Source: an uncultured Candidatus Saccharibacteria bacterium
GTDB taxonomy: Bacteria > Patescibacteriota > Minisyncoccia > Phycocordibacterales > Phycocordibacteraceae
Length of the DNA stretch: 32,567 nucleotides
Assembly: GCA_964357805.1 (NCBI GenBank)
Contig: CAYHMS010000005.1
Span: 1-32,567 of the forward strand
Reading direction: 5' to 3'
Positions 6,007-31,850 of the stretch are shown here, in pieces. The position numbers were made by a program, and so were the translations under genes. The notes beneath the pieces are model-generated. The model ran no database searches and was not told the origin of the DNA. It saw nothing but the letters and a program-made list of their open reading frames with translations. The first letter of the stretch is position 1; every line of letters begins with the position of its first letter.

Positions 6007-6639
6007 TTATTTGCTTACCACTTCCAACAGCGTGCCGCGACGGCCCGGCACGGCGCCGCTGACGATAATCTTACCTGTTTTTGCGTCAACGACGAGCACT
6101 TTCAGGTTTGTCACCGTCACACGGTCTGTGCCAAGACGGCCGGCCATCTTCATACCCTTGGCGACACGGCCTCCCGCGCGCCCGCCCGAGCCGCCGATAG
6201 AGCCCGGGGAGCGCTCGGTGTGCTTCTGACCGTGCGTGCGCGGGCCGCCATGGAAGCCGTGGCGCTTCACGACTCCCGAAAAGCCCTTGCCCTTTGACAA
6301 ACCTGAAACCTGCACGACATCGCCGACAGCAAAAATATCTGCGCTGATTGTATTTCCGACTGCTTGCTGCTCCTGCTCACTGCCTCCTTCAGGCAATCTA
6401 AATTCTTTGATTGCCTGGAATCCCTTCCCCTTCGTATGGCCGAGAACTGCTTTGCTGATATTCTTGGTGCGGCGAACGCCGACACCAACCTGAATAGCGG
6501 AGTATGCATCCTTGCCCTCCTTCGTCTTCACCTGCGTCACTGTGACCGGGTCAGCCGCGAGAATGGTCCCCGCGTGCGCGAGACCGTCCGCCGTAAAGAT
6601 ACGGGTCATCTTTTCTTTCTTAGCGAGAATAAATTTCAT
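6007..6639 (-). CDS. rplC: 50S ribosomal protein L3
   Basis: Start at ATG 6639 (MKFILAKKEKMT); SKGKGFSGVVKRHGF..GSIG..KGMKMAGR..GAVPG. Confidence 0.97.
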   Translation of the reverse strand: MKFILAKKEKMTRIFTADGLAHAGTILAADPVTVTQVKTKEGKDAYSAIQVGVGVRRTKNISKAVLGHTKGKGFQAIKEFRLPEGGSEQEQQAVGNTISADIFAVGDVVQVSGLSKGKGFSGVVKRHGFHGGPRTHGQKHTERSPGSIGGSGGRAGGRVAKGMKMAGRLGTDRVTVTNLKVLVVDAKTGKIIVSGAVPGRRGTLLEVVSK

Positions 6640-6724
6640 TGTTAAAGCAAAACGCGCGATGCAGAGACGCATCGCGCGTTCTGCCATAGGACCGGCCATT
6701 GGGCACCGTTCGTAGCGTTAGCGG

Positions 6725-6753
6725 TACTCTACCCTACCCCTCCAAAAGATGCA
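6725..6753 (-). promoter_or_regulatory. sigma70-like promoter of rplC operon
   Basis: TTGCAT-17 nt-TAGAGT; downstream leader has hairpin AACGCGCGATGC..GCATCGCGCGTT (~6651-6680). Confidence 0.65.
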
Positions 6754-6796
6754 AGAAACAGAACGGCCGCGAGTGATTAGCTCGCGACCCTTTGCT

Positions 6797-6973
6797 TCAA
6801 TCGCCATGACATCCGCCGTGTGGCACTGGACGACCGATTGGATGTGCATCAATTTCGGCACTAAGAGCATCGTAATACGCATCTTCCAGCGCTTCGGCAG
6901 CAACTTGTGCCTTTCTTGCTTCTTCATCTCTTCTCGGCGCGTCTGCAAGAAACTCTTTAAACGTCATTGCCAT
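6797..6973 (-). CDS. small hypothetical protein (58 aa)
   Basis: ATG at 6973 preceded by AAGGAGGG; MAMTFKEFLADAPRRDEEARKAQ..PHGGCHGD. Confidence 0.6.
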   Translation of the reverse strand: MAMTFKEFLADAPRRDEEARKAQVAAEALEDAYYDALSAEIDAHPIGRPVPHGGCHGD

Positions 6974-7070
6974 AGTTCTACCCTCCTTTCTGTCTGTACT
7001 AACAGTAACACACAACCGTCCTTGCGGGCTGTGTGCATTCTTAGCCTCCGTTATTACCTCATCGTCACTA

Positions 7071-7108
7071 TGTTCGTTAAGTCATACGACCGTTGTAGAT
7101 AACGAACA
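7071..7108. repeat. left inverted-repeat copy flanking PaaX-like gene
   Basis: TGTTCGTTA-20 nt-TAACGAACA. Confidence 0.85.
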
Positions 7109-7112
7109 CTGA

Positions 7113-7727
7113 TTATTGTGGTGGCGGAAGGTTGAAATGTTGGCGTAGTTTCTCATCGTGCTCTATTTCATCAGCAACTATGTAGAGAACTCCATATCCA
7201 AGCTTGAGATGTGTACGTAAAAAGACAAGGAGTTTTTCACACGGATACGGGTACGCCCATGCGCTGTCCTGAACTTTGACGAAGCCGAATTCTTTGAGAG
7301 TTTCTCGCAGCTCATCACGCACCTTCCGGCGCCTCTCCCACACATCAAACATAATGATTCTCCATTTCTGGTCCCATTTCCTCTGCTTCGTAGGACGTAC
7401 TTCTTCACGCTGGCTCAACTCTTCAGCAATTTTCATCCCCTTCTCCGTCAGCTCTATGCGAGATCCATGCTGTGTGTTCGTCCGTCTGAATATTCCTTGA
7501 GCAATCAATTCTGAATATTTCTGGCTCACTCGCCGTTTGAGTCGAGGAGAAGGTCCGATGGCTTTTTCTACATACTTGAGAAGTCTCACAGCATTTGGCG
7601 CCATAACTATCATCCCTACTCCAACAGCGAGGTATGTCGAGAGTAAAACTGCATCTCTGATTTGATTACGCTTTGCCCTATGTCTCACCCTCTCCTCAAT
7701 ACTCCCCGTCTGCGCTTTTTTCTTCAT
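7113..7727 (-). CDS. CPR PaaX-family regulator-like protein (wHTH + Cas2-like domain)
   Basis: IELTEKG wing motif, then WDQKWRIIMFDVWERRRKVRDELRETLKEFGFVKVQDSAWAYPYPC. Confidence 0.8.
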   Translation of the reverse strand: MKKKAQTGSIEERVRHRAKRNQIRDAVLLSTYLAVGVGMIVMAPNAVRLLKYVEKAIGPSPRLKRRVSQKYSELIAQGIFRRTNTQHGSRIELTEKGMKIAEELSQREEVRPTKQRKWDQKWRIIMFDVWERRRKVRDELRETLKEFGFVKVQDSAWAYPYPCEKLLVFLRTHLKLGYGVLYIVADEIEHDEKLRQHFNLPPPQ

Positions 7728-7764
7728 GTTCGTTATTCTACACGGTCGTAGGACTTAACGAACA
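7727..7764. repeat. right inverted-repeat copy overlapping promoter/start of PaaX-like gene
   Basis: TGTTCGTTA-ttctacacggtcgtaggact-TAACGAACA; contains minus-strand TAGAAT 7 nt before the ATG. Confidence 0.85.
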
Positions 7765-7834
7765 TTGGAATGTGAATAGCAAAACAAAGTGATGTGGGCT
7801 TCTCTACCCTACCCCTCCAAAAGATGCAAGAAAT

Positions 7835-7971
7835 ACGAAATCCCGCAAAGTGCGGGACTGCTTCAATAAAGATCGGAGCGAATGCCCCCGAAGAGCGACG
7901 GCACTCATCTTGACCGTGTTCGTCGACTAACTCGACCAAGTGCTAGAACGCGATCGCTCTTCGGGAGACCT
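7835..7971 (-). ncRNA. putative standalone structured ncRNA of unknown class
   Basis: Extended -10 (TGaTACACT, 7978-7986); long stem 7953-7967 pairing 7885-7899 with G-U pairs on the minus strand; terminator-like hairpin 7840-7858. Confidence 0.5.
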
Positions 7972-7995
7972 GCACGTAGTGTATCAAATGATATA

Positions 7996-8031
7996 AAACA
8001 CACAACCGCCCTGGTGAGCGGTTGTGTGTTT
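7996..8031 (-). terminator. intrinsic terminator after rpsJ
   Basis: AAACACACAACCGC/GCGGTTGTGTGTTT 14-bp stem followed by U tract. Confidence 0.75.
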
Positions 8032-8049
8032 GTGTCTTGGCGGTCTTTG

Positions 8050-8490
8050 TTAAACCATTTTCACATCTATCGTGACTCCCGACGGAAGATTGAGGTTCGT
8101 GAGGGCCTCTATCACCTTCGGCGAAGGATTGAGGATGTCGATGAGGCGCTTATGGATGCGCATTTCGAACTGCTCGCGCGCGTCCTTATAGACGAAGGTG
8201 GAGCGGTTCACCGTCCAGCGCTTAATCTCGGTCGGCAACGGGACCGGCCCGACGACGACGGCGTCAAAGCGCGCAGCAGTGTCCATAATCTGCTTCACCG
8301 ACATATCCAGAATTTTGTGCTCATACGCCTTCACGCGGATGCGGAGCTTGTGCTCTGTCACTGGAGCGGCCGATGTCGCTTTCTTTTTCGGTACGACCTT
8401 CGCTCGCGGCGCCTTCGGCGCCGCGGCCTTCTTCACCGGGGTTTTCGCCTTCGGTTTTGCTTTTGGCTTCGTTGCCATTTTTGTTGGCAT
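8050..8490 (-). CDS. rpsJ: 30S ribosomal protein S10 with Lys/Ala/Pro-rich N-extension
   Basis: [36 protein letters not shown]. Confidence 0.97.
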
Positions 8491-20678: not shown

Positions 20679-21671
20679 ATGCGTGTTTCGCTTCCCTCTA
20701 TCACAATAGTTCTTCTTGTGTTCTCGTTTGGAGCCTGTGCATATGCGCAAACGAGTGCTTTGAACACATTTACGCTGAGTCTCTCACTCGGTTCTCGAGA
20801 TACACAAGTTATCACGCTCCAACAGGCCCTCAATCGAGACTCTGCTACTCGTATTGCAAGCATCGGCCCCGGCTCTCCTGGCAATGAGACAAATTATTTT
20901 GGGTCACTCACGAAATCAGCAGTCATTCGATTTCAAGAAAAGTATGCGAACGAGGTTTTGGTACCCGCTGGTCTGGTACAGGGCAGTGGGTATGTAGGGT
21001 TTTATACGAGAACTAAACTCAACGGGCTTTCCGAGTCGAAAGTGAGTGCGAGAGGTGTGAGCCCGCTTGATGTACCACCGGCAACCACTCCCTCTTCTTC
21101 AACCAGTATCGTCACTCCTCCAACTATTCCACAAAACCCGAATCTAAAGAATTTCGACAAATTTCTGACCGCTCTCGACAATGCGGCAATCAAACAAGGA
21201 ATTCCCGCCGCCACGCTCGCCACTATGAAAGAGCAGGCCGTGAAAGTAATCGCAACAACGACCGATTTACGCACGAATTTTTTGAAAATAGTACAAGACA
21301 GATCCACTCAAATCGTACAGGACACTTCGCTTATCGGCAGAACCTTAGCGATGGTAGAACGAACATTTAATAAGGTCTTCATTCCAAACCGTGCGCATGC
21401 TGCAGCTGGTGTTCCTTTTGGTGGAGCACTTCTGTTCGCTCTCCCCTGCAATGGCGGTGTATGGAACATCACGCTCTCACCGCTCCCTCCTACTTTTGTA
21501 ACCCTCGTCTCTTATATGTCGGGGTCCCAAGCATTCCTCTCGTACAATATACCTGCGACGAGCTGGCTTCTCGGAGAATACACGCCCGGCGCCGGTGCGT
21601 GTTGGATTGGACCGTATTACATCTACTCAGAAGGGCTGATTACGCCAATGGTCGGGTCTTCTCCGATATAA
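20679..21671 (+). CDS. peptidoglycan-binding domain protein
   Basis: Signal peptide; LSLGSRDTQVITLQQALN..GSPGNETNYFGSLTKSAVIRFQ..GYVGFYTRTKLN. Confidence 0.85.
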   Translation: MRVSLPSITIVLLVFSFGACAYAQTSALNTFTLSLSLGSRDTQVITLQQALNRDSATRIASIGPGSPGNETNYFGSLTKSAVIRFQEKYANEVLVPAGLVQGSGYVGFYTRTKLNGLSESKVSARGVSPLDVPPATTPSSSTSIVTPPTIPQNPNLKNFDKFLTALDNAAIKQGIPAATLATMKEQAVKVIATTTDLRTNFLKIVQDRSTQIVQDTSLIGRTLAMVERTFNKVFIPNRAHAAAGVPFGGALLFALPCNGGVWNITLSPLPPTFVTLVSYMSGSQAFLSYNIPATSWLLGEYTPGAGACWIGPYYIYSEGLITPMVGSSPI

Positions 21672-22416
21672 TCGCAAGCCACTGATCAAGTTTTAAGTCC
21701 TCTGCACGAGCTTTCTCCGGAATACCCCCACTTGGAAGTCCGACTTCAACGAGATTGTTCCTCACGAATTTGCGCTTATGCGCAAAGCCCGCATGCAACA
21801 GCATAAAAAATCGCTTTTCTTCTGCTTCTGTTGCAAAGTTCTTTCGAGAAATATTGCGGATAGTGAGCACGGCTGAATCCACCTTCGGTGCGGGCTTGAA
21901 AGCTCCACGCGGAACAATAAATTCACGCTTCGGTGTGCCATACGCTTTTATCGAGAGCGATAAGATACTCTCTTTACCATCATGGGCGACAATACGGTCA
22001 GCGACTTCTTTCTGCACCAAAAGCGTCATCGCGCCCGGCTGGTTCTTTGAGGTAAGAAACTTCCTAAATATGTCGCCGGTGAGATAATACGGAATATTTG
22101 CGACCAGATGATATCCCCTATTCCCCACGGTCGTAATATTTAGGGGATACGTGCGAATGTCGCCGTGTATGAGTTCCAATTTCTTTTTCGCTATCTCATC
22201 CGCAAATTCCAGTTTCAATTTTTCAAAAAGCTCTCCGTCCGCTTCAATCGCAATAATTTTTTTTGCTAACTTTAAGAGTTCTCGCGTGAGCATACCCGTC
22301 CCGGGACCGATCTCAAGTACGACGGCATCAAGCGCGAGCTCCGCAATAAGCGCGATGCGCTCCGCGATACGCGCGTGCATCAAGAAATTCTGCCCGAGTG
22401 ATTTCTTCGCATACAT
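21640..22416 (-). CDS. rsmA: 16S rRNA (A1518/A1519) dimethyltransferase KsgA
   Basis: KKSLGQNFL, VLEIGPGTG.LT, VANIPYYLT, F.PAPKVDSAV. Confidence 0.97.
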   Translation of the reverse strand: MYAKKSLGQNFLMHARIAERIALIAELALDAVVLEIGPGTGMLTRELLKLAKKIIAIEADGELFEKLKLEFADEIAKKKLELIHGDIRTYPLNITTVGNRGYHLVANIPYYLTGDIFRKFLTSKNQPGAMTLLVQKEVADRIVAHDGKESILSLSIKAYGTPKREFIVPRGAFKPAPKVDSAVLTIRNISRKNFATEAEEKRFFMLLHAGFAHKRKFVRNNLVEVGLPSGGIPEKARAEDLKLDQWLAIISEKTRPLA

Positions 22417-30225: not shown

Positions 30226-30738
30226 TTAACTGCGCGAGGTGATGGTGAACTTGTGCGGGTCGTCGCACATGTCGGTGAAGGCGTGCGCCGCTTCCTTCAA
30301 CTTTGCCGAAGAGGACTTGCCGAAGGAGATAACCTCTACCTGGATGCCGTGCATATCAAGATACTCGATGAGCGGAATGAAGTCGCCATCGCCCGAAGCG
30401 ATGATGACCGTGTCGAGCTTCGGCGACATCTTGACCGCGTCAATCGCGATCCCGACGTCCCAGTCGGCTTTCTTCGCGCCGTCGGCGAATACCTGTAAGT
30501 CCTTCACCTTGGTCTCGATGCCTATCTTGGTAAGCGCTCCGAAGAAGTTCGTTTCCTCGCCACTCTCGGTGGAGATGACATAAGCGACCGCGCGGACGAG
30601 AATGCGCCCGCCCACGGCCTCTTCAAGCACCTTCGCGAAGTTCACGCGCGCTTTGTAGAGATGCTTGGCGCTGTGATAGAGATTTTGCGTGTCAATGAAT
30701 ACGCCCACACGCTGGGCTGGATGTTTGATAACTGCCAT
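30226..30738 (-). CDS. NYN (LabA/DUF88) domain protein
   Basis: VFIDTQNLY, KADWDVGIAID, SGDGDFIPL. Confidence 0.92.
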   Translation of the reverse strand: MAVIKHPAQRVGVFIDTQNLYHSAKHLYKARVNFAKVLEEAVGGRILVRAVAYVISTESGEETNFFGALTKIGIETKVKDLQVFADGAKKADWDVGIAIDAVKMSPKLDTVIIASGDGDFIPLIEYLDMHGIQVEVISFGKSSSAKLKEAAHAFTDMCDDPHKFTITSRS

Positions 30739-31223: not shown

Positions 31224-31850
31224 CTAGCTGAGTGAAAAAACACGGGAGCCCGAGCTTACGCGGATGCTCTCGTCATTCGTATCGTCGATAGACCACTGCG
31301 GTCCGGAGTAGTAAGCGTAGACACGACGCTCGTCGATGTAGAAGATGTTCATAGAGCCGTCGGCGAGCAGTGGACCACTTTCGCCATTTCTCTGAGCATC
31401 TGTGAGCGCCGCGATTTGCCATGTCTCGATGTTGTGTTTTTCTGGGAGCTCGCCCTTGATCTGCCGATCAGAAGCGTCCCTCGCGAGATCAAAGTAACGA
31501 AGCTTTACGGCGTCAGCACTTTCAACTACCGGCATTTCGTTATAGTAGAACCCACTACCTAGTCCTTCTCTGACGCAACTGCTTTTCTCGTCACAGAAGA
31601 ACTCATTCGGATCGAACCGCTTCGTGAGCGGACCGACTGAAATTTCTCCTCGGAAAAGCAAACAAGGCTTCTTCAAGACTGCCTTGCAGTCTGCTTTCAG
31701 GAATTCGACGAAGCGTGTCCGAGCCGAACGGTCGTTTATGGGGAGAAGGATCTGCCTTAAAGAAACTCCTTCTTTCCCCAACACGCGAATTAACTTCGCG
31801 GCTGTGTCGAGAGAATCGCTCATTACTTCGAGGGATGCGATGTTGGACAT
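31224..31850 (-). CDS. hypothetical protein
   Basis: 208-aa ORF with GGAGG upstream; Q.NGE.GPLL.DG..NIFY..GSRVFS. Confidence 0.7.
   Translation of the reverse strand: MSNIASLEVMSDSLDTAAKLIRVLGKEGVSLRQILLPINDRSARTRFVEFLKADCKAVLKKPCLLFRGEISVGPLTKRFDPNEFFCDEKSSCVREGLGSGFYYNEMPVVESADAVKLRYFDLARDASDRQIKGELPEKHNIETWQIAALTDAQRNGESGPLLADGSMNIFYIDERRVYAYYSGPQWSIDDTNDESIRVSSGSRVFSLS

Follow-up and report, generated by a model that had tools for sequence, protein, structure and literature searches.

The locus analyzed here raises the question of why a gene should lie between two matching copies of a long palindrome, one just past its stop codon and the other reaching its start codon, and what the encoded protein has to do with both. 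The stretch of 32,567 nucleotides studied (referred to as the window) is contig C5 of genome G000 (645 kb in 78 contigs, 52% G+C, 94.6% complete), and the element of interest, a unit, is defined as a mini-PaaX-like gene together with the palindrome on each side of it. The protein encoded by this unit, of 204 amino acids (aa), has close homologues in Kaiserbacteria, Paceibacterota and Patescibacteria bins as well as in groundwater, and the local gene order is tuf, rpsJ, the unit, a small open reading frame (ORF) and rplC. We name paralogous units by their contig (C3, C4, C5, C7, C8, C9, C18 and C28), and use the term solo site for a palindrome of some class that lies away from its cognate gene. 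The explanation that we hold to be probable, on the strength of sequence comparisons, is a set of mini-PaaX repressors that are orthogonal and autoregulated, each having paired operators along with a small number of additional sites. No description of this bracketed layout was found in the literature on PaaX, the Cas2-like fold, PaaX operators and the candidate phyla radiation (CPR), as represented mostly by titles and the opening parts of abstracts, with supplementary files outside the search.

A Gene Between Two Matching Palindromes

The features of the unit, in window coordinates, are as follows:

7727..7764, no strand: upstream 38-bp palindrome (UP), a putative operator with arms TGTTCGTTA/TAACGAACA and, in gene direction, centre ACGACCGT
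7735..7740, minus strand: -10-like hexamer TAGAAT, within the UP palindrome and ending 7 nt before the ATG
7113..7727, minus strand: mini-PaaX-like gene (204 aa), encoding a winged helix-turn-helix (wHTH) and a PaaX_M/Cas2-like domain, without the PaaX C-terminal domain
7071..7108, no strand: downstream 38-bp palindrome (DOWN), a putative operator with arms as in UP and its centre inverted relative to UP

A preliminary description of this DNA had reported two 38-bp repeats, one of them 4 bp after the stop codon and the other inverted over the -10 box and start, with a core common to both, and the coordinates agree with it on each of these points. The pattern TGTTCGTTA-N20-TAACGAACA matches exactly at 7071–7108 and 7727–7764 (0 matches in 100 dinucleotide shuffles of the window), and its 9-mer arm TAACGAACA occurs four times in the window, against 0.14 expected. 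The DOWN copy starts 4 bp past the stop codon, and the UP copy extends to the A of the start codon at 7727, with TAGAAT read from 7740 to 7735 on the minus strand. The core ACGGTCGTA is present in both copies, at 7085–7093 on the minus strand and at 7742–7750 on the plus strand. As these are opposite strands, one 38-mer is an inverted copy of the other, with 85% complementarity over 39 nt.

Conservation of the Layout Across the Family

The bracketed layout is observed well beyond this locus. A tblastn search of G000 identified eight paralogues with 34–63% identity, all eight of which are bracketed by their own class of 36–38-bp imperfect palindrome. The same bracket is seen at 10 of 11 fetched loci of relatives (the remaining locus, L010, has the upstream copy only), and, as judged by eye, clearly at nine of ten loci from other lineages (Staskawiczbacteria, Doudnabacteria, Saccharibacteria-labelled and Paceibacterota bins), with L057 being doubtful. 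For metagenome loci, 75 of 80 of which had enough flank, we took the best ungapped 32-nt window as the measure: upstream and downstream regions share 21–32 matches, against 17–21 for the upstream region and a mid-gene control and 17–24 for permuted upstream/downstream pairs, and 67 of the 75 loci score at least 23, above any within-gene control. Of 102 units, an automatic finder, which at times takes nearby terminators for palindromes, recognized an upstream centre in 86, a downstream one in 79 and both in 68. The check that the preliminary description had proposed on PaaX-like homologues of the CPR, namely for flanking repeats, has therefore gone in its favor among paralogues, relatives and metagenome loci alike. 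Its idea of a dispersed cognate-repeat system is likewise borne out, with a private palindrome class at both ends of each of the eight paralogues, solo copies in addition, and an extent across Patescibacteria. On the sequence evidence, this large and little-studied family of predicted regulators in Patescibacteria has, as a rule, its genes between two matching sites.

The family is present in 14 of 31 related genomes (9 of 18 within the genus), with 0–3 copies each in relatives, compared to eight in G000. The palindrome centres of the eight units of G000 fall into five groups:

ACGGTCGT: units C5, C9 and C4
GCGGTCGG: unit C8
GACGGTCGTC: unit C18
CCTATAGG: units C3 and C28
CGCTATAGCG: unit C7

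When mapped on the protein tree, core class requires 11 changes, compared to 23–33 in the first 10 of 200 label shuffles, a comparison that is descriptive because kin share labels. The relative orientation of the flanking copies varies, being inverted in three and direct in five of the eight G000 units, and opposite in 18 and the same in 8 of the units with a CGGTCG centre.

A Minimal PaaX-Type Protein That Is Not a Working Cas2

The domain content attributed to the protein in the preliminary description, a wHTH followed by a ferredoxin/Cas2-like domain as in PaaX, is recovered at the level of both family and fold. Pfam gives PaaX_M (PF20803) with an E-value of 5.8e-19, and only a weak match to Cas2 (PF09827, E-value 0.0013, 19.3 bits vs a cut-off of 23.8). 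In the AlphaFold model (mean predicted local distance difference test score of 80), a long N-terminal helix precedes a winged helix, which is followed by a beta-alpha-beta-beta-alpha-beta domain, and Foldseek ranks PaaX of E. coli W (8a39, E-value 2e-5) first, followed by Rv0674 (3kfw), F-93 of SSV1, and then the PaaX-like protein of Jannaschia (3l09) together with several Cas2 chains. Searching the PDB with the single protein sequence gave no match, and a profile search of the PDB gave weak wHTH, PaaX-like and Cas2 matches only. The hydrophobic stretch at aa 25–44 was considered as a membrane anchor and set aside, as the model places aa 10–36 in the long first helix, before the winged helix.

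PaaX (8a39, with relatives 3l09 and 3kfw) thus shares with this protein a wHTH followed by a Cas2-like middle domain, and 8a39 is its best structural match; the two differ in length (204 aa vs 316 aa in the 8a39 chain) and in the PaaX_C effector domain, which is absent here. A search with Pfam at E-values up to 1 found no C-terminal PaaX_C domain, the protein ending at aa 204, soon past the Cas2-like domain, and the PaaX equivalog model TIGR02277 scores 32 bits against a cut-off of 264.55. Given this score and the missing C-terminal domain, the protein is not a true PaaX. No association with phenylacetate genes was noticed, and no search aimed at one was made.

With Cas2 it shares a ferredoxin-like fold, an Asp at the end of beta1 and a QxSVW motif. 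This Cas2-type Asp is kept in at least 90% of 28 family sequences and is absent in Rv0674. The NCBIfam cas2 model TIGR01573 is passed marginally (25.1 vs 24.5 bits), but over model positions 2–39 of 96 only, and this marginal pass accounts for the Cas2 labels on some homologues in public records. The protein further differs from Cas2 in its wHTH fusion and its setting: G000, at 94.6% completeness, gave no match to Cas1 (PF01867), which 7 of 14 control genomes do match, and no CRISPR array was found in it (at least three repeats spaced 40–100 nt). PADLOC returned partial Cas2 and weak LmuC matches only. The protein is not a working Cas2, and the label is a misnomer. Nor did Pfam and NCBIfam detect an HUH, DDE or recombinase domain in it, and the matches from these libraries and from Foldseek are of PaaX_M, Cas2 and wHTH types only.

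Anatomy of the Sites and Their Predicted Recognition

The observed anatomy of the sites is that of conserved 9-bp arms, a free spacer, and a dyad centre that reads CGGTCG (with a GT/AC middle), CTATAG or CGGCCG. As a function of distance from the dyad axis, symmetry is 0.97–1.0 at the centre (pairs 1–2), 0.4–0.65 in the spacer (pairs 4–9) and 0.73–0.97 in the arms (pairs 10–18). Such a dyad centre fits two-fold recognition of duplex DNA by a protein, and allows no pairing within a hairpin loop.

This bears on a reading in which the palindromes are RNA or single-strand hairpins (a 3' stabilizer, a terminator or a processing site) and the Cas2-like domain is a nuclease that recognizes or cleaves them. 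Some Cas2 proteins have been reported as RNases, the DOWN copies would be transcribed just past the stop codon, the arms differ between classes yet stay complementary, and the UP region folds with -14.7 kcal/mol (z -3.7). We nevertheless consider this reading very unlikely. The centre is itself a dyad of 6–8 bp (CTATAG, CGGCCG), mismatches on the sense strand of DOWN copies (G:T 66 vs A:C 50) show no RNA-type bias, and DOWN as RNA is an ordinary hairpin (-13.5 kcal/mol, z -1.3) with no T tail. Palindromes moreover occur in both orientations relative to transcription, many UP copies would remain untranscribed if the mRNA is leaderless, and no Rfam family reaches its gathering score in the window, the rplC leader and the palindromes included. 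DOWN was also rejected as an intrinsic terminator, given its ordinary stability and lack of a T tail; separate intrinsic-terminator-like hairpins are present in the locus. A role in RNA or single-stranded DNA hairpin cleavage is not supported.

As duplex sites, the palindromes resemble PaaX operators in their geometry. According to a review (PMC9493321), the E. coli PaaX operator is TGATTC(N27)GAATCA, of 39 bp, PaaX represses its own promoter Px through steric hindrance, and the middle part of PaaX is a dimerization motif. Written with 6-bp half-sites, UP and DOWN are TGTTCG(N26)CGAACA, of 38 bp, a span within one base of the E. coli operator as quoted there. Both systems would thus have two inverted half-sites about 26–27 bp apart, 38–39 bp in total, here at the level of sequence. 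As described in that source, the PaaX site also lies over its own promoter with autorepression; the predicted site here ends at the ATG. A conserved dyad centre, a second site past the stop codon, and eight orthogonal paralogues per genome set the present family apart from PaaX.

We also compared the similarity of sites with the identity of the two protein domains across 91 non-identical units, using partial rank correlations (rho) in which each domain is controlled for the other, with 300 permutations. The observed co-variation is as follows:

Arm similarity vs wHTH identity: partial rho 0.17 (at least equalled in 0 of 300 permutations)
Arm similarity vs Cas2-like identity: partial rho 0.08 (in 3 of 300)
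Centre similarity vs Cas2-like identity: partial rho 0.21 (in 0 of 300)
Centre similarity vs wHTH identity: partial rho 0.02 (in 47 of 300)

These values hint at a modular code, in which the wHTH would read the arms and a Cas2-like dimer would sit over the centre. Dimerization of the 204-aa protein is assumed here from the precedent of PaaX and Cas2.

A Predicted Autoregulatory Circuit

Among units with a recognized upstream centre, 32 of 86 have a UP palindrome that stops at -1 with respect to the ATG, and 50 of 86 have one that stops within -3 to +2. Where it ends at the ATG, TATAAT-like heptamers (ATATAAT, GTAGAAT, GTATACT) occur at a fixed position, and at the present locus the position of the -10-like hexamer suggests a transcript of the 204-aa gene that would be leaderless and autorepressed. 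A second group of 19 units has the palindrome 14–23 nt upstream of the ATG; in the C8 unit, the only one looked at in this respect, the intervening spacer holds a Shine–Dalgarno-like AGGGAG.

We infer binding, repression, a leaderless start and looping as follows. The protein would be a minimal PaaX-type repressor, with a winged helix and a Cas2-like dimerization domain and without the ligand-binding C-terminal domain, and its dimer would occupy the 38-bp dyad site. Each winged helix would contact one of the 9-bp arms, whose midpoints are about 29 bp apart, and the conserved centre would be covered by the Cas2-like dimer. The UP site would cover a promoter from approximately -37 to +1. Its -10 box would fall in the right part of the site, towards the interior, and transcription would begin at the ATG, such that binding at UP would shut off the gene's own expression. 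DOWN would be bound by the same protein, most likely strengthening repression through looping, or else acting as a roadblock that insulates the cassette. Repressors with auxiliary operators and looping are known from lac (O1/O2) and gal (OE/OI), and the layout here resembles them in having, for one protein, a predicted second operator at a distance of several hundred bp from the site next to the promoter. The difference here is that the auxiliary site lies just past the regulator's own stop codon, in a placement conserved family-wide. A function of DOWN as the promoter or operator of the next gene was rejected as a general rule, as three of the eight DOWN sites in G000 lie between convergent genes. 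Genome-wide, eight such proteins, each with a private code of arm and centre and a few extra sites near or in housekeeping genes, would form an orthogonal repressor set.

Solo Sites in the Genome

Solo copies are class-specific, with 1–8 per class and approximately 28 dispersed in G000, while a generic palindrome census of this genome gives 42 matches, about three of which look spurious by eye (C1:17094, C5:27837 and C9:18895). Solo sites adjoin housekeeping genes such as ung, trmD, holA, dprA, pyrH, rbfA, ftsW, ychF, rseP, comEC, smc and ftsH, these names being read from translations, without a family-library run. Some of the sites lie 0–6 bp past a stop codon, and two lie inside ORFs.

This distribution raises the possibility that the proteins do bind their sites, but that their main job is that of a roadblock or insulator, or of bridging and organizing DNA at gene boundaries, with autoregulation as a side effect. 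Tus, which binds TerB next to tus, offers a comparison. The sites do lie at gene ends and starts, including the DOWN sites between convergent genes, most solo sites have no -10 box, and the site at both unit ends is conserved family-wide. A density of about 40 sites per 645 kb, together with the presence of the family in only half of the sampled genomes of the genus, argues against a core architectural role, and the locus already has separate terminator-like hairpins. We therefore regard a primary function at gene boundaries as unlikely.

Several individual sites deserve mention in their own right. At C1:40027–40142, three 38-bp palindromes of different classes (starting at 40027, 40066 and 40105) are arranged head to tail, separated by 1 bp each, in front of a gene for a PD-(D/E)XK-like nuclease, and a fourth lies 6 bp past the stop codon of this gene. 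Four solo palindromes with TATCCA arms and a GCTATAGC centre (C1:40105, C6:4279, C6:28326 and C38:196) have no cognate unit in this assembly, and the missing portion of G000 may contain a ninth unit. Units with a GCTATAGC centre occur elsewhere (L137 and L164, with a looser match in L168, which has TCTATAGG/TCTATAGA centres), and a pair of TATCCA/GCTATAGC sites 671 bp apart in genome G055 probably brackets the cognate gene of this class. A 399-aa RarA/MgsA-like ORF contains, at C21:6675–6712, a palindrome of C4-like type with TATCAAAAG arms, the second intragenic site besides that in rsmA. Finally, C8:12–49 and C41:7–44 are identical over 38 nt at two contig ends, and the assembly probably breaks at this terminal palindrome repeat.

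The rpsJ–rplC Gap, the rsmA Site and the Question of Mobility

Further features of the window that bear on mobility are the following:

7802..7833, minus strand: copy 1 of a 32-bp repeat, the rplC-operon promoter TTGCAT-N17-TAGAG, upstream of the unit
6727..6758, minus strand: copy 2 of the 32-bp repeat, at its normal position before the L3 leader and rplC (likely start 6639)
6797..6973, minus strand: 58-aa ORF without a Pfam match, located between unit and rplC
22112..22149, no strand: solo palindrome of a sister class, in frame in an rsmA-like ORF (21640–22416)

The alternative here is that the unit or its palindromes are mobile, now or recently, in the manner of repetitive extragenic palindromes and their associated tyrosine transposases (REP/RAYT), or of insertion sequences (IS) and miniature inverted-repeat transposable elements (MITE), with a protein that recognizes and possibly cuts cognate hairpins and so spreads them to gene ends and permissive coding loops. 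At first sight, the 32-bp exact direct repeat that encloses the unit and the small ORF resembles the target-site duplication of such an element, an interpretation that was rejected. In relatives with a short rpsJ–rplC gap, the sequence is single and forms the promoter TTGCAT-N17-TAGAGT, which lies after the rpsJ terminator and before the L3 leader; the repeat therefore reflects duplication of a host promoter, at a variable spot, and not a target duplication made by the unit. The gap measures 154–246 bp in 10 of 20 measurable loci, and 345–1241 bp, with other ORFs, in the other 10 (nine further loci, in which rplC lies outside the fetched locus, were left out of this count). Orthologous loci have different ORFs at the position of the 58-aa ORF. 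Contigs from four DNA read runs at this locus did not bridge an empty site; they break at the 32-bp repeat and have loose ends at the palindrome borders, as repeats would give. A search for RNA runs that cover 6600–8100 of the window returned none.

We note that the rpsJ–rplC gap is a hot spot for inserted ORFs in the genus, ranging from 154 to more than 1241 bp (6640–8050 in the window, loci L018–L046), and that the rpsJ terminator and rplC promoter tend to recur as partial copies at the flanks of its inserts; a decayed terminator copy at 7002–7032 resembles the rpsJ terminator at 7996–8031. Between promoter and rplC, a conserved leader hairpin GCAGAACGCGCGATGC/GCATCGCGCGTTTTGC (6645–6700, minus strand; rplC start 6639), common to relatives, could be a ribosomal-protein leader.

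The palindrome inside rsmA, which the preliminary description had counted as a third copy of the same repeat (core at 22127–22135), belongs instead to a sister class, TATCCCCTA-N20-TAGGGGATA, with the same centre and different arms. This 38-bp palindrome is cognate to the paralogous unit on C9, and not to the 7113..7727 gene. One codon position of rsmA holds an in-frame palindrome of one of three classes in 8 of 30 genus loci, and a short form in 22 of 30. The rsmA sites replace sequence instead of cleanly inserting. The arms of the rsmA site change together with those of the cognate unit (CCCC/GGGG in G000, CCGC/GCGG in G001 and G006), and in G009 and G010 no cognate unit for the site was found among the units fetched. 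For genomes in both searches, rsmA palindromes occur in five of eight with the family and in none of six without it, small numbers from related genomes. We read the changes in rsmA and at solo sites as those of binding sites that evolve with their proteins, rather than of hopping elements, with a conversion-type process as a less likely reading.

Synteny was observed to be conserved: orthologues of the unit (L047–L049, 76–85% identity) retain the tuf–rpsJ–unit–rplC context together with arms and -10 box, but vary in their spacers and also in relative orientation, and the C18, C28 and C4 units keep their neighbors in other genomes. Neighbors are thus kept for four of eight classes, G000 contains no near-identical copies of the gene, its paralogues being as divergent as noted above, and taken together this leaves mobility unsupported. 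Short duplications abutting the palindromes were not found, copy orientation varies where that of transposon ends would be fixed, and the protein has no HUH, DDE or recombinase domain. The longer direct duplications that flank two units are copies of host promoters or gene ends. One such case is seen at C4, where the 474-aa gene that precedes the unit has about 64 bp of its 3' end (30560–30625) repeated past the unit (31370–31435) with approximately 78% identity; no duplicate of this type was found at the related unit L172 (G006), which has the same upstream neighbor.

In favor of mobility, each gene is flanked by cognate palindromes of which solo copies are dispersed, often just past stop codons; different classes abut, as on C1, or occupy the same rsmA codon position in different species, most loci having the short form; copy number is patchy; flanking duplications do occur; the Asp at the end of beta1 is kept, unlike in Rv0674; and solo sites turn over fast between close relatives. 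In REP/RAYT systems, a gene is flanked by its own class of imperfect palindromes of about 35–40 nt, with class-specific solo copies at gene ends, and the units here are similarly flanked by cognate palindromes of a class dispersed in the genome. They differ in that the protein is not a Y1/HUH transposase, in having 1–8 solo copies per class and a double-stranded DNA dyad centre, and in that direct orientation is possible. From IS and MITE elements they differ through direct orientation in five of eight units, the lack of abutting short duplications and of near-identical copies, and the conserved neighbors of C5, C18, C28 and C4. Considering all of these points, we judge present or recent mobility to be improbable.

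More speculatively, and with still less confidence, the cassettes could be a new selfish or domesticated module, a functional analogue of REP/RAYT in which the Cas2-like domain, with its catalytic-type Asp, would nick or cut the dyad centre and the winged helices would choose the arms, the palindromes being copied or converted into gene ends and tolerant coding loops such as that of rsmA. If true, this would be a Cas2-fold protein acting on DNA without Cas1.

The two options of the preliminary description, autoregulatory operators with looping or the ends of a minimal mobile unit, have thus fared differently. Operators are favored by the PaaX-operator geometry, the -10-like box in UP, the double-stranded DNA dyad centre and synteny, while mobile-unit ends are not supported, given the absence of near-identical copies and the varying orientation.

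Points Against Autoregulated Repressors, and Implications

A number of observations weigh against autoregulated repressors with paired operators. At the present locus, a two-hexamer consensus scan of the UP site called no full sigma-70 promoter or -35/-10 pair, so that the promoter there is predicted from the -10 hexamer, and the promoter copy at 7802–7833, 38–70 nt upstream, could give this gene a leader that contains the palindrome. Across the genome, two solo sites lie within ORFs and some abut with 1-bp gaps, which is unusual for classical operators, and a good -10-like hexamer faces a nearby gene at only 4–5 of 28 solo sites. The palindromes around the PD-(D/E)XK-like gene turn over fast, one of the four (the first) being kept in the close relative G053, at 83% DNA identity. 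Flanking direct duplications are present at two of seven testable units, with scores of 64 and 61, where the control has its 95th percentile at 25. The modular correlations are modest in size and come from related units. Finally, three of the eight DOWN sites are placed between convergent genes.

Taking these points into account, we still favor orthogonal, autoregulated mini-PaaX repressors, and it is for the biology of Patescibacteria that this matters most. These bacteria of the CPR have tiny genomes and almost no characterized regulators, and the recurring misannotation of proteins of this family as CRISPR Cas2 is corrected here. As the predicted binding site can be read from both ends of the gene, the regulons of uncultured organisms would become predictable from their genomes alone. 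The eight non-cross-matching protein–site pairs in 645 kb suggest a compact orthogonal repressor set, the possible modular code of which may be reusable as genetic parts.

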